A stretch of DNA of 12,028 nt, taken from UHGV virus genome UHGV-0149822; one strand, written 5' to 3'. Under the pieces are notes generated by a model that had not been told where the DNA came from, did not search any database, and was given only the letters and a program-made list of their open reading frames with translations. Origin of the DNA: a virus. The translations under genes and the position numbers were made by a program. Position 1 is the first letter of the stretch. The number at the start of each line of letters is the position of its first letter. Positions 3 through 11,980 of this stretch are shown here, piece after piece.

Positions 3-368
3 AATGGAGTCAAGGCTGATTACGAGGCTTATAAGATAGGCTACGTAGTCCCATCTAGCGATCATTTTTACACGCCGGACTTCGTTTTACCAAACGGAAT
101 CATCGTGGAGACCAAAGGTATCTTCGATAGTGATGACCGTAAGAAGCACCTTCTGGTACGAGAACAGCACCCTGAGTTAGACATTCGGTTCGTGTTCTCA
201 AGTTCCCGCTCCAAGTTATACAAGGGGTCTCCGACCACGTATGGCGCATGGTGCGAAAAGAACGGCTATAAGTATGCCGATAAGTTCATCCCGGTTGAGT
301 GGCTGCGAGAGGCGACTGTACGTCTGCCTTCAGGTATCCTCATCCCCAAGAAGAAAGGAGTTAAGTGA
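3..368 (+). CDS. gp3: Endonuclease I / Holliday-junction resolvase (T7 gene 3 homolog); 5' end lies upstream of the window
   Basis: Frame opens at nt 3 with no start in window (NGVKADYEAYKIGYVVPSSDHFYTPDFVLPNGIIVETKG...). The PDF...ETKG...DDRKKHLL(V/I)REQHPELDIR...SSSR.KLYKGSPT segment matches T7 endonuclease I as I recall it, including the D...E-x-K catalytic motif. Stop TGA 366-368. Confidence 0.85.
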   Translation, partial: NGVKADYEAYKIGYVVPSSDHFYTPDFVLPNGIIVETKGIFDSDDRKKHLLVREQHPELDIRFVFSSSRSKLYKGSPTTYGAWCEKNGYKYADKFIPVEWLREATVRLPSGILIPKKKGVK

Positions 369-838
369 TGACTCAGAAATATAGACTTAAGGTTAGTGAC
401 TACGGGTGGCCTAAAGGTACTATCGTTACGAAATGTTCGAAAGACCCTGTACCATCGTCTGGACATGTTCTGGTGGAATCCACTGAGCGTGGAGCCTACA
501 AACACGGAGCAGCAGGTTATGACACTCAGCCTGACGGTATGTGGGGGGCGTGGGTTTTAAAAGAACATCTTGAGGAAATCGTAGAGGATAAACCGCAAGT
601 CCTGCCAGCTTCGAGCGTACCGCCTGTGACTGTGAATCGTGAAGTCCTGACCATCGACAAGATTGGTGTAGGCCAGACGTTCATCGTCCACGGAAAGCCT
701 GAAGAAGTTTACGTGAAGATTAGCAACTCACACGTCTTCAACCATAAGCGTCTCCAGATGCACACCACGGACGCACAGCGCTTCACCCAGCACCTGAATC
801 TAGTGGTCGTAGAATTGGTGGTGTACAATGGTAAGTAA
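365..838 (+). CDS. Hypothetical protein, 157 aa, no recognisable family; inserted between endonuclease I and lysozyme
   Basis: Uninterrupted ORF; ATG overlaps the gene 3 stop (ATGA at 365-368) and its stop (836-838) overlaps the lysozyme start (828), so it is embedded in the operon. No motif I can assign. T7 has no gene here. Confidence 0.6.
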   Translation: MMTQKYRLKVSDYGWPKGTIVTKCSKDPVPSSGHVLVESTERGAYKHGAAGYDTQPDGMWGAWVLKEHLEEIVEDKPQVLPASSVPPVTVNREVLTIDKIGVGQTFIVHGKPEEVYVKISNSHVFNHKRLQMHTTDAQRFTQHLNLVVVELVVYNGK

Positions 839-3471: not shown

Positions 3472-3534
3472 GTCTAGACTCAAGGTCATTCACATAGAGT
3501 GGCCTTTATGATTAGACTAAACGGAGGATTAACC

Positions 3535-3936
3535 ATGTTTGATTGCATTGAGTGGAACGGGTGCCGAGACCGTTTCGGATACGGTATGCGAAAGGTCAAC
3601 GGGAAAGTCCGTAGACTACATCTAATAGCCTTCGAGGAGGCGAACGGTCCGATACCTGAAGGAATGGTCGTGCGACATAAGTGTGACAACCCATCGTGTT
3701 ACAACCCAGCACACTTAGAGCTGGGGACACGGGCCGACAACAATCGTGATAGAGACGTAAGAGGTCGAACCGCTAAGGGAGTGAGGCATGGGAGTTCTAG
3801 GCTTACACCTGAAATAATACAAGAGGCCAAGGTGCTCTACGCAGGAGGTGGATGGACTCACCGCTCCCTAGGTGAGAAGTATGGAGTGGGACACCGCACG
3901 ATAGCTAGAGCAATTGGAGGAGAAACATGGACTTAA
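3535..3936 (+). CDS. HNH homing-endonuclease-like protein with C-terminal HTH-like region (copy 1)
   Basis: HNH motif RHKCDNPSCYNPAHLELGTRADN visible. SD GGAGG (3523-3527) 7 nt before ATG 3535; the track frame opens earlier at GTG 3499. Stop TAA 3934-3936 overlaps the DNA polymerase start by 10 nt. Confidence 0.85.
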   Translation: MFDCIEWNGCRDRFGYGMRKVNGKVRRLHLIAFEEANGPIPEGMVVRHKCDNPSCYNPAHLELGTRADNNRDRDVRGRTAKGVRHGSSRLTPEIIQEAKVLYAGGGWTHRSLGEKYGVGHRTIARAIGGETWT

Positions 3937-6095
3937 GTAACGTATACGGGTCTGACATCGAGACCAACGGTCTCCTTGATACAGTCTCCCAGTTTCACTG
4001 TGGGGTCCTGATTAACGCCGAGTCGAATGAGACCCTTAAGTATGGGGTAGCTCCGATGGTCGGTATCGTCGGTGGCTTCAAAGAGTATGTTCAGAAGGTG
4101 GAAGAGATTGCCGCATCACCTGATGGTATGCTGGTATTCCACAACGGTATCAACTATGACGTCCCTGCTATTGACAAGCTGAAACGTCTGTACTTTGGGA
4201 AACGATTTAACTTCCCGAAACACAAGATGATTGATACCTTGGTGCTCGCCCGCTTGATGTATCCAAACATTAAGTTCTCAGACATGGGCGCGGTGAAATC
4301 TGGTCGTCTGCCACCTAAGATGATGGGACGCCAGTCTCTTGAGGCTTGGGGTTATCGTCTCGGTGAGATGAAAGGTGAATACAAACACGATTACGTTGCC
4401 AAGTGCAAGGCTGAAGGTATCGAATATAAGGCTGGGGACGAATGGTTGTTCCCGTCTCAGGAGATGCTGGACTATAACGTTCAAGACGTTGTGGTCACGC
4501 TGGCGTTGCTCAAGAAGTTCCTGACTGACAAGTATTACTTCCAGTCTGAACAGTTCGCTTTCGACCAGATTTATGCGTTGCGTCTGGAACATGATGCTGC
4601 GTGGACCTGTGCGAAGATGGAACGTAACGGCTATCCGATGAACACCGAGATGGTCGAAGGCTTATATCGTGAACTCACCGTCAAACGTGCAGAGTTGCTG
4701 GACAAGCTGCGTTCGACTTTCGGTAGCTGGTACGCACCAAAGGGAGGCAAGGAGTTCTTCAAGCACCCACGGACAGGCAAGGACCTTCCGAAGTATCCGC
4801 GAGTCGTGTATCCTAAGGTCGGGTCAGTATTCAAGAAGCCGAAGAACAAAGCTCAACGCTTAGGTCTGGAGCCTTGCGAGTTCGACTCACGAGACACAAT
4901 GGAAGGAGCACCATTCACGCCAATAACTTACGTTGAGTTTAATCCGGGAAGCGGAGACCACTTAGCGAAAGTCCTGATGGAGCGTGGCTGGGAGCCTGTG
5001 GACTTCACTGACACCGGGAAACCTGTAGTCGATGACGAGACGTTAGAGCACGTTAAGTTGCCAGACGCAGAGGCTCAGGCTTGCGTAGAGCTGGTCCGTG
5101 AGTATCTGGTAGTCCAGAAGCGCATCGGTCAGGCGGCTGAAGGTAAGAACGCATGGTTGAAACTTGTAGGTCCAGACGGACGTATGCACGGTTCAATCAA
5201 CCCATGCGGGGCAGTAACCGGACGTGCGACTCATAGTTCACCAAACATGGCTCAGGTCCCGGCTAATGGTGCTCCATATGGTGAGATTTGCCGTGGTGCT
5301 TTCGGTGCAGCTTGGAACAAGACGGATGGTACGCCAGACCCTTGGATTCAAGTGGGTGTGGATGCTTCAGGTCTTGAGCTTCGTTGTCTTGGGAACAGAG
5401 CGGCTCCGTTTGATGGTGGTGCATATGCGAAGAATGTGGTCGAAGGTGACATCCACTGGGCCAACGCAGTAAACGCTGGGTTAGCACCTAACGTCCCACG
5501 CGATAAGTCGAGCCACGACCATGATGCTTTCCGTAACAACGCTAAGACGTTCATCTATGCGTTCCTGTACGGTGCAGGGGCCGCTAAGATTGGACTGATA
5601 GTAGGCGGTGGGAAGAAGGAAGGTTCAGCTCTCATGAAGAAATTCATTGAGGGTACACCAGCCATCAAAGACCTCAGGGAAGCTGTGAGCAATACGTTAA
5701 TCTCAGACTCTAAGTGGGTGGACGGTGAGAATATCGTTAAGTGGAAACGCCGTTGGTTGCGTGGACTTGATGGTCGCCGTATCCACATCCGGTCACCGCA
5801 CTCAGCACTGAACGCCTTACTTCAAGGCGATGGTGCGGTAGTCTGTAAGCACTGGATTGTCGAGACTGAACGTATGCTCGAAGAGGCCGGGTATGTTCAC
5901 GGCTGGGAAGGTGACTTTGCGTACATGGCTTGGGTACATGATGAATTGCAGATTGCGTGTCGTACTCAGGAGATTGCTGAAGAAGTCGTCAAGATTGCTC
6001 AGCTTGCTATGCGTAAGGTGGGTGAGTTCTATAACTTTAAATGTGTCCTTGATACCGAAGGTAAGATTGGACCAACGTGGAAGGAGTGTCACTAA
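3927..6095 (+). CDS. gp5: DNA polymerase, family A with 3'-5' exonuclease domain (T7 gene 5 homolog)
   Basis: 722 aa. Exo I motif (SDIETNGL), Pol motif A (GVDASGLELR), motif B (KTFIYAFLYGAG), motif C (AWVHDELQ), and a lysine-rich insertion (PKYPRVVYPKVGSVFKKPKNKAQR) corresponding to the T7 thioredoxin-binding loop. Colinear with T7 gp5 along the whole length. Confidence 0.97.
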   Translation: MDLSNVYGSDIETNGLLDTVSQFHCGVLINAESNETLKYGVAPMVGIVGGFKEYVQKVEEIAASPDGMLVFHNGINYDVPAIDKLKRLYFGKRFNFPKHKMIDTLVLARLMYPNIKFSDMGAVKSGRLPPKMMGRQSLEAWGYRLGEMKGEYKHDYVAKCKAEGIEYKAGDEWLFPSQEMLDYNVQDVVVTLALLKKFLTDKYYFQSEQFAFDQIYALRLEHDAAWTCAKMERNGYPMNTEMVEGLYRELTVKRAELLDKLRSTFGSWYAPKGGKEFFKHPRTGKDLPKYPRVVYPKVGSVFKKPKNKAQRLGLEPCEFDSRDTMEGAPFTPITYVEFNPGSGDHLAKVLMERGWEPVDFTDTGKPVVDDETLEHVKLPDAEAQACVELVREYLVVQKRIGQAAEGKNAWLKLVGPDGRMHGSINPCGAVTGRATHSSPNMAQVPANGAPYGEICRGAFGAAWNKTDGTPDPWIQVGVDASGLELRCLGNRAAPFDGGAYAKNVVEGDIHWANAVNAGLAPNVPRDKSSHDHDAFRNNAKTFIYAFLYGAGAAKIGLIVGGGKKEGSALMKKFIEGTPAIKDLREAVSNTLISDSKWVDGENIVKWKRRWLRGLDGRRIHIRSPHSALNALLQGDGAVVCKHWIVETERMLEEAGYVHGWEGDFAYMAWVHDELQIACRTQEIAEEVVKIAQLAMRKVGEFYNFKCVLDTEGKIGPTWKECH

Positions 6096-7748: not shown

Positions 7749-7800
7749 GTCTAACCGATAGTCATATCCTATCAATCCAACAGTCATCCATAGGTGAAAC

Positions 7801-7823
7801 ACTAAACTATCACTATAGGGACT
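7801..7823 (+). promoter_or_regulatory. Phage-RNAP promoter (ACTAAACTATCACTATAGGGACT), phi6.5-equivalent
   Basis: Exact copy of the 18-nt motif CTAAACTATCACTATAGG shared with the sites at 10953 and 11959. Positions -6..+4 are identical to the T7 consensus CACTATAGGG. Intergenic, 62 nt upstream of the gp6.5-position gene; predicted +1 G at 7818. Confidence 0.75.
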
Positions 7824-8805: not shown

Positions 8806-9046
8806 ATCAATCAGTAAGGCATTCAAGAAAGTGGTGAAAAGTACACTAGGGACCGTTGGTCTTGGCTCTGATGACGCGCCTAAGGTTGTTGAGGCTCAGA
8901 CCCCAGCGGCACCAGTGGAAGTACCGAACGACAAAGTGGAGGATGTGGATACTGAAACAACCGCATCTGACGAGAAGAAAGTGAAGCGTTCCGGTAAGCG
9001 TGGCCTTCAGGTCTCTCGCACCTCTGGTGGCGGTATTTCTATTTGA
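8798..9046 (+). CDS. gp7.3-like protein (in T7 a tail-associated protein needed for adsorption)
   Basis: SD AAGGAG (8785-8790) 7 nt before GTG 8798. Lys-rich N-terminus MGKSISKAFKKVVKS and C-terminal ...SGKRGLQVSRTSGGGISI resemble T7 gp7.3 as I recall it. Confidence 0.65.
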   Translation: MGKSISKAFKKVVKSTLGTVGLGSDDAPKVVEAQTPAAPVEVPNDKVEDVDTETTASDEKKVKRSGKRGLQVSRTSGGGISI

Positions 9047-9459
9047 CCGGGTGCATCGAGTGGAAGTGGGCCAAATCCCCTGATGGGTATGGACAGAAGC
9101 GTATAGACGGAAAGTTAGTGTATATGCACCGACTCGCTTACGCCGATGCCTATGGTCCAATACCTGACGGAATGCTCGTCCGTCACAAATGTGATAACCC
9201 CTCATGTTTCAACGTTAACCACTTAGAGCTGGGGACGCAACGTGATAACATGCAGGACGCTTCAAGTCGAGGTAGGATTAACACTACCAAGAAGGCTAGA
9301 GGTGAATCTCAGGGATTATCAGTTTTAACAGAAGACCTTGTTCGAGAAATCCGCAAGTCAACTGTAGGCTGCACGACCTTAGCTCGTGAGCTTGGCGTTA
9401 GTAAGTCTACCGTACTGCGTGTTCGCCAAGGTAAAACATGGAGGCACGTAGATGGCTGA
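9043..9459 (+). CDS. HNH homing-endonuclease-like protein with C-terminal HTH-like region (copy 2; at the T7 gene 7.7 position)
   Basis: HNH motif RHKCDNPSCFNVNHLELGTQRDN. Paralogous to the 3535-3936 protein at protein and nucleotide level. Apparent TTG start at 9043 overlaps the gp7.3-like stop (TTGA); no good SD, suggesting coupled or low-level translation. Stop 9457-9459 overlaps the portal start. Confidence 0.8.
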   Translation: MTGCIEWKWAKSPDGYGQKRIDGKLVYMHRLAYADAYGPIPDGMLVRHKCDNPSCFNVNHLELGTQRDNMQDASSRGRINTTKKARGESQGLSVLTEDLVREIRKSTVGCTTLARELGVSKSTVLRVRQGKTWRHVDG

Positions 9460-9736
9460 ACGTGAAGGATTTGCTGCTGAAGGCGCGAAGGCAGTTTATG
9501 ATAGACTGAAGAACGGTAGACAACCATATGAGACACGCGCTCAGAACTGTGCTTCTGTCACTATCCCGTCACTGTTTCCTAAGGAGTCAGACAACTCGTC
9601 TACGGAATACGTGACGCCGTGGCAAGCTGTAGGTGCTCGCTGTTTGAACAACTTGGCTGCAAAGCTGATGTTGGCGTTATTCCAGAGGCTGCTGCTCGTG
9701 TTGACGAAGGGCTGGCTATGGTCGAGCGTGTGTTGA
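9452..9736 (+). CDS. gp8: Head-to-tail connector (portal) protein, N-terminal fragment (T7 gene 8 homolog); frame terminates prematurely
   Basis: SD GGAGG (9438-9442) before ATG 9452. MAEREGFAAEGAKAVYDRLKNGRQPYETRAQNCASVTIPSLFPKESDN.STEY.TPWQAVGAR.LNNLAAKLMLALF matches the T7 gp8 N-terminus. Similarity stops after F (9680-9682); the frame then reads QRLLLVLTKGWLWSSVC and stops at 9734-9736. Confidence 0.85.
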   Translation: MAEREGFAAEGAKAVYDRLKNGRQPYETRAQNCASVTIPSLFPKESDNSSTEYVTPWQAVGARCLNNLAAKLMLALFQRLLLVLTKGWLWSSVC

Positions 9737-10956
9737 TGGCCTACATGGAGACTAACAGTTTCCGTGTCCCATTGTTCGAAGCTCTGAAGCAGCTTATCGT
9801 CTCCGGTAACTGTCTGCTCTACATTCCAGAGCCTGAACAGGGTACTTATAGTCCTATGCGAATGTACCGCTTAGTGTCCTACGTTGTTCAACGTGATGCT
9901 TTCGGTAACATCTTGCAGATTGTGACTCTCGACAAGGTAGCGTTTAGTGCTCTACCGGAAGACGTGAAGTCTCAACTCAACGCAGACGACTATGAGCCTG
10001 ACACCGAGCTGGAAGTATATACGCACATCTACCGTCAGGACGACGAGTATCTGCGCTACGAGGAAGTGGAAGGAATTGAGGTAGCAGGGACCGAGGGTTC
10101 TTACCCACTGACTGCATGTCCGTACATCCCTGTACGAATGGTTCGACTGGATGGTGAAGACTATGGTCGTTCTTACTGCGAGGAGTATCTGGGAGACCTT
10201 AACTCGCTGGAGACGATTACAGAAGCTATCACCAAAATGGCTAAGGTAGCCTCCAAGGTGGTGGGCCTCGTTAACCCGAACGGTATCACGCAACCTCGTC
10301 GTCTGAACAAGGCGGCTACAGGTGAGTTCGTTGCTGGTCGCGTCGAGGACATCAACTTCCTGCAACTGACGAAAGGTCAGGACTTTACGATTGCCAAGTC
10401 GGTGGCTGATGCTATCGAGCAACGTTTAGGCTGGGCCTTCCTTCTTAATAGTGCTGTTCAGCGTAATGCCGAGCGAGTCACTGCTGAAGAGATTCGTTAT
10501 GTTGCTGGCGAACTGGAGGCGACCTTAGGTGGCGTGTACTCAGTACAGTCACAAGAGCTTCAGTTGCCTATCGTCCGTGTACTGATGAACCAGCTTCAGT
10601 CTGCTGGCATGATTCCTGACCTTCCGAAAGAAGCGGTAGAGCCTACGGTCTCCACTGGTCTGGAAGCTCTGGGCCGTGGTCAGGACTTGGAGAAGCTGAC
10701 TCAGGCGGTTAACATGATGACTGGTCTCCAGCCGCTAGCTCAGGACCCGGACATCAACTTGCCGACCCTTAAGCTGCGACTCCTGAACGCTCTAGGCATC
10801 GACACCGCTGGCCTACTCCTGACGCAAGACGAGAAGATTCAGCGCATGGCTGAGCAGTCGTCTCAACAGGCAGTTGTCCAAGGTGCGTCTGCTGCTGGCG
10901 CTAACATGGGTGCTGCTGTAGGTCAGGGAGCTGGTGAGGACATGGCTCAAGCCTAA
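9619..10956 (+). CDS. gp8: Head-to-tail connector (portal) protein, C-terminal portion in a different frame (T7 gene 8 homolog)
   Basis: From about 9682 (P-E-A-A-A-R-VDEGLAMVERVLMAY...) to the stop at 10954-10956 this frame is colinear with T7 gp8 residues about 105 onward (e.g. YRLVSYVVQRDAFGN, LRYEEVEG, CPYIP.RMVRLDGE.YGRSY.EEYLGDL, GLVNP.GITQPRRL, VTAEEIRYVA.ELE.TLGGVYS, LKLR..NA.GIDT). The first ATG of the ORF (9619) is upstream of where homology resumes. Confidence 0.9.
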   Translation: MASCRCSLFEQLGCKADVGVIPEAAARVDEGLAMVERVLMAYMETNSFRVPLFEALKQLIVSGNCLLYIPEPEQGTYSPMRMYRLVSYVVQRDAFGNILQIVTLDKVAFSALPEDVKSQLNADDYEPDTELEVYTHIYRQDDEYLRYEEVEGIEVAGTEGSYPLTACPYIPVRMVRLDGEDYGRSYCEEYLGDLNSLETITEAITKMAKVASKVVGLVNPNGITQPRRLNKAATGEFVAGRVEDINFLQLTKGQDFTIAKSVADAIEQRLGWAFLLNSAVQRNAERVTAEEIRYVAGELEATLGGVYSVQSQELQLPIVRVLMNQLQSAGMIPDLPKEAVEPTVSTGLEALGRGQDLEKLTQAVNMMTGLQPLAQDPDINLPTLKLRLLNALGIDTAGLLLTQDEKIQRMAEQSSQQAVVQGASAAGANMGAAVGQGAGEDMAQA

Positions 10957-10974
10957 ACTATCACTATAGGAACA
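10952..10974 (+). promoter_or_regulatory. Phage-RNAP promoter (CCTAAACTATCACTATAGGAACA), phi9-equivalent
   Basis: Contains the 18-nt motif CTAAACTATCACTATAGG. Overlaps the portal stop codon and lies 97 nt upstream of the scaffolding gene. Initiating region is GGA rather than GGGA. Predicted +1 G at 10969. Confidence 0.7.
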
Positions 10975-11071
10975 CCGAAAGTAAGAGCGACTAAGTCGAC
11001 CATATGGTAGCCGTTAGTCCCACACTGCAAGTAGGTGTTTACTTATTAACGACTTAAAGGAGAATGACTCA

Positions 11072-11956
11072 ATGTCTCAATCAGTTTATGCCGAGTTCGG
11101 CGTTAGCTCTAATGCAATCACTGGTTCCGTTGAGGACCTGAACGAACACCAGAAGTCTATGCTTGAACAGGACGTAGCTGTTCGTGACGGAGACGACGCT
11201 ATTACCTTCAAGCAACTGGAAGCCGAAAACGAAGAGGCTACCGAAGAAGACGAAAACGTCGAAGAGACTGAAGGTGAAGAAGACCACGAGTCCGATGACG
11301 AAGAGTCTGAGACCGATGGTGATCAGCCTGAGTTCATCGAACTAGGTGATGCACCGAAAGAGCTGACTGAAAGTGTCACAGCTCTGGATGAAAACGAAGC
11401 TGCATTTGACGACATGGTGTCTTCTGCTGTAGAAGCTGGCAAGGTCACTGCTGATGAAATTACCGCTATCAAGGCTGAATACGCCAAGGACGGTAAGCTG
11501 TCTGACGCATCCTACGCTAAGTTGCAGGAAGCAGGTTACACCAAGCGTTTCGTAGATTCGTTTGTTCGTGGTCAGGAAGCTCTGGCTGAACAGTATGCTG
11601 CTGGTGTGGTTCGCTACGCTGGTGGTGCTGAACAGTTTAATCGCATCCTGTCACACCTTGAGTCCAACGACCCGTCAACTCGTGAAGCACTGGAAGCTGC
11701 TATCGTTCGTAAGGACATTGCAACTACCAAAGCTCTGCTGAATCTGGCTGGCAAGACTCTGGGTAAAGCTGTGGGTGTTAAACCTCAGCGTACAATCACC
11801 GCTCAGGCTAAACCTGTGGTCGCACCTAAGGCTCCTCAGACCGAAGCATTTAGCTCCAAGGCTGATATGATTAAGGCTATGAGTGACCCGCGATACCTGC
11901 GTGACGCCAAGTACACGATGGAAGTTCGCGCTAAGGTAGCTGCCTCAAGCCTGTAG
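11072..11956 (+). CDS. gp9: Capsid assembly (scaffolding) protein (T7 gene 9 homolog)
   Basis: SD AAGGAG (11057-11062) before ATG 11072; 294 aa with a highly acidic N-terminal half. VYAEFGV...ARDGDDAI, SYAKL.E.GYTK.F.DS..RGQEAL.EQY, YAGG...F, MIKAMSDPRY..DA.Y match T7 gp9 as I recall it. Confidence 0.9.
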   Translation: MSQSVYAEFGVSSNAITGSVEDLNEHQKSMLEQDVAVRDGDDAITFKQLEAENEEATEEDENVEETEGEEDHESDDEESETDGDQPEFIELGDAPKELTESVTALDENEAAFDDMVSSAVEAGKVTADEITAIKAEYAKDGKLSDASYAKLQEAGYTKRFVDSFVRGQEALAEQYAAGVVRYAGGAEQFNRILSHLESNDPSTREALEAAIVRKDIATTKALLNLAGKTLGKAVGVKPQRTITAQAKPVVAPKAPQTEAFSSKADMIKAMSDPRYLRDAKYTMEVRAKVAASSL

Positions 11957-11957
11957 A

Positions 11958-11980
11958 ACTAAACTATCACTATAGGGAGA
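11958..11980 (+). promoter_or_regulatory. Phage-RNAP promoter (ACTAAACTATCACTATAGGGAGA), phi10-equivalent (late promoter for the major capsid gene downstream of the window)
   Basis: Best copy of the motif; -6..+6 (CACTATAGGGAGA) is identical to the T7 consensus. Sits immediately after the scaffolding gene stop. Predicted +1 G at 11975. Confidence 0.8.

Follow-up and report, generated by a model that had tools for sequence, protein, structure and literature searches.

Phages of the T7 group encode small takeover and anti-defence proteins. These include Ocr (gp0.3), gp2, gp1.2, gp4.5, gp5.5, gp5.7 and gp5.9. Such proteins are products of early or middle genes, vary between lineages, lack enzymatic motifs and bind a host protein. 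To our knowledge, none of them joins a constant domain to interchangeable in-frame modules. Tail fibres and tailspikes consist of a conserved anchor and a horizontally exchanged receptor-binding part, with recombination at conserved junctions. Phage accessory regions are hotspots of fast-evolving accessory genes between core genes (Silas et al. 2023, bioRxiv 10.1101/2023.04.06.535777). Here, we describe gene 3.2 of the virus genome UHGV-0149822. The stretch analysed, hereafter the window, is 12,028 nucleotides (nt) long. Gene 3.2 occupies positions 368-838 of its plus strand, between gene 3 (endonuclease I) and gene 3.5 (amidase or lysozyme). The product, gp3.2, has a constant C-terminal domain and an exchangeable N-terminal module, each predicted to form a small β-barrel. 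The gene itself is already annotated in relatives; this constant/exchangeable two-barrel architecture is what is new here.

Gene 3.2 resembles each of these systems in part. It is of the same class of genome position and size as the takeover and anti-defence genes of the T7 group. However, there is no homology. Pfam returned nothing, and no anti-defence or host-takeover family represented there (Ocr, gp5.9, ArdA, Acr and others) matches gene 3.2. Like the accessory regions of Silas et al., the locus is a bounded island of diversity, with unrelated alternatives in near-identical genomes. Unlike in those regions, the alternatives here are fused in frame, as the N-terminal domain of a single conserved protein. 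The likeness to tail fibres and tailspikes, a conserved anchor with an exchanged specificity part, is an analogy. In contrast to tail fibre genes, gene 3.2 is one of the middle (DNA-metabolism) genes, which precede the virion structural genes, and it lacks any virion signature. Its variable part is also N-terminal and only about 70 amino acids long.

The best DNA matches to this region are Kayfunavirus genomes (K1F-like Studiervirinae), many of which are 90-95% identical to it. The whole region was matched by 228 phage records in a megablast search. The order gene 3, gene 3.2, amidase is common to the window and 20 annotated relatives. In Kayfunavirus genomes, the open reading frame (ORF) is listed as a hypothetical protein, as gp3.2 (K1F, EcoDS1) or as gp3.01 (CR44b, CR8). 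The match to PHROG 16385 covers the whole protein (E 4e-93; residues 1-156, profile positions 1-157 of 157). The C-terminal 70 amino acids match PHROG 15211 (E 5e-40, residues 87-156 against positions 5-74 of 74). Hence, the gene, which the initial annotation took as the best candidate for a previously undescribed function, is not itself undescribed. Its remark that the product carries no recognisable motif agrees with our searches. For the window protein there were no matches in Pfam (E <= 10), NCBIfam or PADLOC. Sequences in the PDB gave none either, with the single sequence or with a profile of the C-terminal domain. Both PHROGs are labelled 'unknown function'. Published work on gp3.2, K1F and Kayfunavirus yielded genome-annotation tables and no paper assigning a function. 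The family motif was not found in the text-form supplements of the accessory-gene screen of Silas et al. (bioRxiv 10.1101/2023.04.06.535777), and the HIDEN-SEQ preprint has the Kayfunavirus group outside its coverage.

A word-indexed search of 5.8 billion proteins found 255 homologues, nearly all on contigs of 39-40 kb. An exhaustive hidden Markov model search of 1.84 billion cluster representatives gave 18 matches, all of them family members or fragments. Judged by these matches, the family is confined to the Kayfunavirus group and a sister clade with two published matches, both Providencia phages. Gene 3.2 is a real gene and not a chance ORF, since it has a full-length PHROG match, 255 homologues and a C-terminal half under purifying selection. 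Some database entries for the locus are unusual. MT350292.1, OR786095.1 and MT446393.1/MT446394.1 include entries named 'Enterococcus phage EFA-1' and 'Staphylococcus phage MBBL139' that carry the gp3.2 locus. The EFA-1 record is classified as Kayfunavirus and flagged UNVERIFIED_ORG. The host labels of the EFA-1 and MBBL139 records are almost certainly wrong. In TH20, also an UNVERIFIED record, the gp3.2 gene is shortened to 101 amino acids.

The two halves of gp3.2 differ sharply in conservation. Briefly, the protein consists of an N-terminal module (residues 1-72, positions 368-583), a proline-rich linker (residues 73-86, EDKPQVLPASSVPP, positions 584-625) and the constant C-terminal domain (residues 87-156, positions 626-835), all on the plus strand. 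We labelled the N-terminal modules of the family, which are 55-90 amino acids long, types A to J. The window encodes type A. In an alignment of 120 homologues, residues ~76-156 (from PQVLPASSVPPVTVKREVLTIDKIGVGQTFIVHGKPEEVYVKISNSHVFNHKRLQMHTTDAQRF to HLNLVVVELVVYNGK) are nearly invariant. The mean entropy per column is 1.11 bits in the N-terminal domain and 0.19 bits in the C-terminal domain. The gp3.2 of K1F and EcoDS1 and the gp3.01 of CR44b and CR8 (PHROG 16385) are the same gene, in the same slot and with the same two-domain architecture, including a type A module. The K1F protein is 56% identical to that of the window in the N-terminal half and 94% identical in the C-terminal half. Compared with Escherichia coli phage TM1, nucleotide identity is 97.3% for gene 3, 38% for the N-terminal module, 98.6% for the C-terminal domain and 95.7% for gene 3.5. 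The value of 38% arises because TM1 carries a type B module.

Within the constant domain, an invariant motif spans positions 710-784 of the plus strand. It comprises Y115, S119-N-S-H122, F124-N125, Q130, H132, T134 and R138-F139, giving the pattern SNSHxFN...QMHTT...RF. Phenylalanine F105 is also invariant in alignments that include the second clade, at 30-38% identity, while M131 and T133 are only nearly so. We considered whether this His/Asn-rich motif marks an HNH or ββα-Me nuclease. No HNH profile match with the canonical H...N...H spacing was found, and the reading was rejected. We also rejected a constraint at the nucleotide level as the cause of near-invariance. In the C-terminal half, the rate of synonymous substitution (dS) is normal (0.1-0.7), the ratio of non-synonymous to synonymous rates (dN/dS) is ~0.12, as in genes 3 and 3.5, and Rfam returned nothing.

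The C-terminal domain was found by tblastn in 220 of 50,697 phage records and, at E <= 1e-3, in essentially none outside records of the Kayfunavirus type. Because 228 records match the whole region, the domain looks like a core gene within the genus. An earlier description of the ORF as a lineage-variable insertion therefore holds for the N-terminal half, which is variable and exchangeable, and fails for the core-like C-terminal 70 amino acids. Homologues of the sister clade are 30-50% identical. One, on ENA contig ERZ17811656 (positions 4001-4677), has its gp3.2-like gene directly after endonuclease I, with an extra 79-amino-acid ORF before the amidase. In Dev2 and the Citrobacter SH phages, gp3.2 is a stand-alone protein of 74 amino acids (PHROG 15211). 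It is homologous to residues 87-156 of the window protein (~80% identity) and occupies the same slot. Unlike the window protein, it has neither N-terminal module nor linker. These short genes mark the C-terminal domain as the ancestral or minimal unit of the family.

The C-terminal domain occurs in three states. It is encoded alone (74 amino acids) in Dev2, the Citrobacter SH phages and many Salmonella Typhi phages. Elsewhere, it is fused to one of at least 8 mutually unrelated N-terminal modules or lies behind two stacked modules. In every state its gene is directly 3' of gene 3 and 5' of the amidase gene, with the 79-amino-acid ORF intervening before the amidase in the second clade. The linker that joins module and domain is proline-rich and the same or similar throughout, and its sequence is kept across types A, B, D and E. 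Stacking is seen in proteins P0121 (226 amino acids) and P0094 (227 amino acids), where a type A module is followed by a type B-like module and then the C-terminal domain. Searches of Pfam, PHROGs and PADLOC with the other module types gave nothing useful; one type C relative had a weak PADLOC match to DruB (E 0.003, 14 bits). Profile-profile comparison gave no support for type B as a duplicate of the C-terminal domain (hhalign probability 11% over 17 aligned columns).

A recombinant locus captures the exchange. In a metagenomic phage, on a 40,065-nt Logan contig from SRR30884456 (positions 1501-2268), hereafter L062, a type B module and linker form a separate ORF of 98 amino acids. This ends in a duplicated gene 3 tail (...VRLPSGILIPQEERS, then a stop) with a ribosome-binding site. 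Downstream is a complete second gene encoding an E-like module and the C-terminal domain. The recombination junction is at GTGACTGT, a string common to the linker and the gene 3 tail. A stand-alone module protein of this kind is present on three contigs. The N-terminal half is exchanged between phages by recombination, as the comparison with TM1 shows directly, with the linker as the downstream flank of the cassette.

These arrangements bear on whether the halves of gp3.2 cooperate. Conceivably, two independent functions share one reading frame. The C-terminal domain would be self-sufficient, and the N-terminal modules would be 'moron'-like accessories at a permissive hotspot behind gene 3. 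Fusion through the linker would be kept for expression by translational coupling. Several findings fit this explanation. The 74-amino-acid genes are common, and on three contigs the type B ORF has a stop of its own and a duplicate of the gene 3 tail and ribosome-binding site. Modules are stacked in P0121 and P0094, and the linker is predicted to be disordered. However, the modules in hundreds of sequences are, with few exceptions, in-frame fusions. Such near-universal fusion is unexpected if it has no value, given that a stop and restart is one mutation away. Nor would conservation of the linker sequence across module types be expected. We consider independent functions fairly unlikely.

Module types are unevenly distributed over host genera. 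The type A module was found by tblastn in 56 of 50,697 phage records, with 56-93% identity to the window. Hosts were Escherichia for 39 records and Salmonella for one; a further 7 are 'Kayfunavirus' records. Where both values are listed, the C-terminal domain of type A records is 88-97% identical to that of the window. Type E was found in 22 records (20 Salmonella and 2 Enterobacter) and type D in 2. This skew is suggestive of an association between module type and host genus.

To describe variation within one module type, we compared 32 type A genes and their flanking sequences, drawn from viral contigs, metagenomes and GenBank phages. The metagenome scan contributed 16 loci, 6 of them type A. 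Sliding-window nucleotide diversity is 0.03-0.07 in gene 3. It begins to rise at the start of the ORF and reaches 0.19-0.40 in the N-terminal module (nt 372-554). Values then return to 0.07-0.10 in the C-terminal domain, with a bump of 0.17 at 750-823, and are ~0.08 in gene 3.5. By the pairwise Nei-Gojobori method, the rate of non-synonymous substitution (dN) is 0.18-0.39 for the N-terminal module in the more divergent pairs, and ~0.03 for each of gene 3, the C-terminal domain and gene 3.5. Pairwise dN/dS (omega) is 0.4-0.96 for the module in closer pairs, falling to 0.18 at saturating dS, and ~0.1 for the other three. Since dS in the module is far higher than in the flanks, the substitution pattern indicates that old alleles have been shuffled into young backbones.

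We observed a second nucleotide-diversity bump (0.16-0.17) at 750-838, the 3' end of the C-terminal domain. It consists of a few co-varying haplotypes, namely DAQRFTQ...VVYNGK, DANRFQR...AVELVVYDGE and VSERFKS. The last codons of gene 3.2 overlap the lysozyme start; hence, the termini of both proteins are coupled.

Changes in the N-terminal module are concentrated at particular sites. Type A modules share a fixed scaffold, GWPxGTIVTKC..DPxP....LVE...G.YKHG..G..TQPxGMWGAWV....LEEI, of which ~25 residues are invariant. Hypervariable positions, with up to 16-18 different residues each, cluster at 9-12, 16, 24, 28-33, 39-43, 48-51 and 64-67, mostly in loops of the structure model. Parsimony counts were made on neighbour-joining trees of 31 genes, ignoring recombination. 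These gave 489 non-synonymous and 252 synonymous changes over the 72 codons of the module (dN/dS 0.54). The ratio is 0.23 for scaffold sites and 0.12 for the C-terminal domain. For the 18 most variable loop sites it is 1.26, a value biased upward by picking those sites post hoc on amino-acid entropy. Diversifying selection on the loops is plausible from these counts.

Hypervariable positions on an invariant scaffold superficially resemble the variable regions made by a dedicated mutagenesis system such as a diversity-generating retroelement (DGR). No second copy of the variable region, which would be the template repeat, was found in the 12-kb window. Synonymous changes are abundant (252 against 489 non-synonymous), and the swapping of unrelated whole modules is a signature of recombination. 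Furthermore, T7-like genomes of 39-40 kb are not known to encode a reverse transcriptase, although no search aimed at one was made here and gene 3.2 was the one ORF of the window compared with profile libraries. The DGR mechanism is effectively refuted, and we regard it as barely credible.

The concentration of variation in surface loops of a fixed scaffold could have another cause. It is known that accessory proteins of phages can set off programmed cell death systems (Silas et al. 2023, bioRxiv 10.1101/2023.04.06.535777). By extension from that literature, gp3.2 or its N-terminal barrel might be recognised by abortive-infection or NLR-like sensors. Variability would then be escape, and the C-terminal domain would do a phage-internal job. 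Loss and replacement of whole modules, with the C-terminal domain retained, is also consistent with such evasion. However, were the module a pure liability, the 74-amino-acid deletion form should sweep. Instead, at least 8 modules with conserved scaffolds are maintained (scaffold dN/dS 0.23 in type A), which argues that each module has a selected function. Nor is any such sensor known. We think it quite improbable that immune recognition explains the pattern.

Alternatively, gp3.2 might be an accessory factor acting on the phage's own machinery. It could modulate one of its translationally coupled neighbours, either in the resolution of Holliday junctions by endonuclease I or in the regulatory switch of lysozyme and RNA polymerase. 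The N-terminal half would be a poorly constrained appendage shaped by relaxed selection and recombination. Consistent with this, the gene has a fixed slot after gene 3 and upstream of gene 3.5, even in the Providencia-phage clade with its 79-amino-acid ORF. In the window it is tightly coupled at both ends. The conservation of the C-terminal domain is similar to that of genes 3 and 3.5, and no individual site shows significant positive selection. However, T7, T3 and other Studiervirinae manage without gene 3.2. Relaxed constraint also leaves the ~25-residue invariant scaffold of type A, and the many folded modules, unexplained. We judge a phage-internal role to be improbable.

Structure prediction gave further insight into both halves. 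With a 45-sequence alignment, AlphaFold2 modelled residues 1-72 as a five-strand barrel, with a predicted local distance difference test score (pLDDT) of 88-95. A Foldseek search of the PDB with this module returned only SH3 domains and PsaE, at E >= 0.2. A model of the C-terminal domain required a more diverse alignment. It is a barrel of five or six strands and one short helix, with a mean pLDDT of 82 and a core at 91-94. The linker between the barrels has low pLDDT. Both halves are thus predicted to be small β-barrels of the SH3 class, a fold-class resemblance seen at low stringency. In predicted topology and size, both resemble SH3-like barrels as varied as eukaryotic SH3, PsaE, FeoA, EF-P domain I/KOW, the C-terminal domain of ribosomal protein L2 and Tudor. 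Small barrels of the SH3 class are typically binding modules rather than enzymes. The predicted folds therefore suggest binding over catalysis. SH3 domains pair a fixed groove with specificity loops. The conserved residues W14, P15, H46, W59 and W62 of type A, set amid variable loops, resemble that arrangement by analogy only.

Our preferred interpretation, held tentatively and at somewhat less than an even chance, is that gp3.2 works as an adaptor in two parts, one a constant anchor and the other a variable module that binds the host. The protein would be a small, cytoplasmic, two-domain product of the middle (DNA-metabolism) period. Its C-terminal barrel (residues 87-156) would be the conserved working core. 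The invariant polar patch of this barrel would attach to a single conserved partner, which could be a phage protein or an Enterobacterales-wide host component. Tethered by the flexible proline-rich linker, the N-terminal SH3-like barrel (residues 1-72) would be exchangeable and would confer specificity for a host protein that varies between strains, most plausibly a defence or takeover target. The aromatic scaffold (W14, P15, H46, W59, W62) would supply the binding groove, and loops 9-12, 28-33, 39-43, 48-51 and 64-67 would determine what is bound. Further specificities would come from diversification of the loops and from homologous recombination at two conserved flanks, the gene 3 tail and the linker, by which whole cassettes are swapped in frame.

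The data show the gene, its division into domains, the contrast in conservation, the exchange of cassettes and, at low stringency, the class of fold. Binding by either domain, the identity of any partner and an anti-defence or host-takeover purpose are what we infer. Variation of the kind seen in these alignments is usually produced by interaction with variable host components, and a hypervariable, exchangeable N-terminal half strengthens the case for a host interaction. Anti-defence or takeover, the role also proposed in the initial annotation, would be the most plausible purpose of such an adaptor. By extension, gp3.2 might be an intracellular counterpart of tail-fibre module swapping. Here, a constant effector or anchor would be retargeted to fast-evolving host immune or takeover targets through ~70-amino-acid cassettes and loop diversification. 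We view this wider proposal as possible, if doubtful.

Several observations weigh against the adaptor. Besides the upward bias of the loop ratio, zero codons were individually significant in a parsimony and binomial test that is crude, underpowered and ignores recombination. The loops may be under relaxed constraint. The association of module type with host genus is confounded by many near-clonal Salmonella isolates. Moreover, among E. coli phages alone there are at least three module types (A, B and D) and the form without an N-terminal module. Each half also occurs without the other, as 74-amino-acid genes for the C-terminal domain and as the stand-alone type B ORF of L062. Hence, tethering is not obligatory. 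Binding by either domain is a proposal, and we found neither literature nor screen data for the gp3.2 family.

Kayfunavirus phages (K1F, LM33_P1, CR44b and many sewage isolates) are models and therapy candidates against capsulated or pathogenic E. coli, Salmonella Typhi, Enterobacter and Citrobacter. The tailspike alone is usually held responsible for their host range. Here, a sharply bounded island of diversity lies amid the conserved DNA-metabolism genes 3 and 3.5. If the module binds host factors, it would be a determinant of host range that acts after adsorption. The locus would then be a natural library, with many alleles on one scaffold and at least 8 scaffolds on one anchor, for finding the targets of host defence. 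On the wider proposal of cassette retargeting, therapeutic phages like K1F and LM33_P1 would carry a new family, spread through the genus, of programmable determinants of anti-defence or host range. If gp3.2 is instead a phage-internal factor, the annotation of two PHROG families, both of unknown function, would still be clearly improved.

The boundaries of gene 3.2 were defined as follows. On the plus strand, the longest ORF starts at GTG 365 and ends with the TAA at 836-838. This gives the 157 amino acids of the initial annotation, and the frame is present as described there. However, the conserved start is ATG 368, which gives 156 amino acids before the same stop. All 32 homologous loci keep ATG 368, whereas 11 of them have GAA or GTA, neither of them a start, as the codon before it. 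A Shine-Dalgarno-like AGGAG, read off the sequence at 356-360 (plus strand), lies 7 nt 5' of ATG 368. With the AGGAG at this distance, and since the ATG is always kept and the GTG is not, the true start is almost certainly ATG 368.

Upstream, the 3' part of gene 3 occupies positions 1-368 of the plus strand and is truncated by the start of the window. All relatives annotate gene 3 as endonuclease I, and PF05367 is present in related loci. The junction with gene 3.2 is AAGTGATGACT. Here, the stop codon of gene 3 (TGA 366-368) overlaps the ORF as GTGA, counting from GTG 365, or as TGATG with one common base, counting from ATG 368. The overlap previously given, ATGA, was incorrect. Downstream, gene 3.5 (N-acetylmuramoyl-L-alanine amidase / lysozyme) occupies positions 828-1286 of the plus strand, starting at ATG 828. 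Relatives annotate it as amidase or endolysin. Its first 11 nt (828-838) are shared with the end of gene 3.2, in agreement with the overlap first noted. In T7, gene 3 (10257-10706) directly adjoins gene 3.5 (10706-11161). Hence, gene 3.2 is extra relative to T7, and both the adjacency and the insertion stated in the initial annotation were correct.

We found no σ70-like promoter, terminator or Rfam element within or just 5' of the ORF. Given this and the gene overlaps, gene 3.2 is presumably transcribed together with genes 3 and 3.5 and coupled to them in translation. A 25-nt phage-promoter-like repeat (CTAAACTATCAC[TC][AT]TAGG[GA]A) has four copies in the window, at 1518-1542, 7797-7821, 10948-10972 and 11954-11978. 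The last contains an exact CACTATAGGGAGA. The copy closest to gene 3.2 is that at 1518-1542; none is inside the gene or immediately upstream.

Elsewhere in the window, the portal gene (gene 8, 9452-10956) is split into two frames, ORF 9452-9736 and ORF 9619-10956, with the break near 9680. All close relatives (ST31, Pipis, TM1 and K1F) align to positions 9452-10000 (549 nt) in two pieces that span 613 nt. Hence, the window is short by ~64 nt after the ...KLMLALF codons, and an essential gene is frameshifted. The likely cause is misassembly or a defective copy of the genome. Finally, two paralogous ORFs of the HNH type are present, at 3499-3936 (145 amino acids), between the primase/helicase and DNA polymerase genes, and at 9043-9459 (138 amino acids), just 5' of the portal gene. 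A 110-nt stretch is 74% identical between them (3619-3728 against 9127-9236). Both are likely homing endonucleases. Phage TM1 has a further HNH gene 5' of gene 3.

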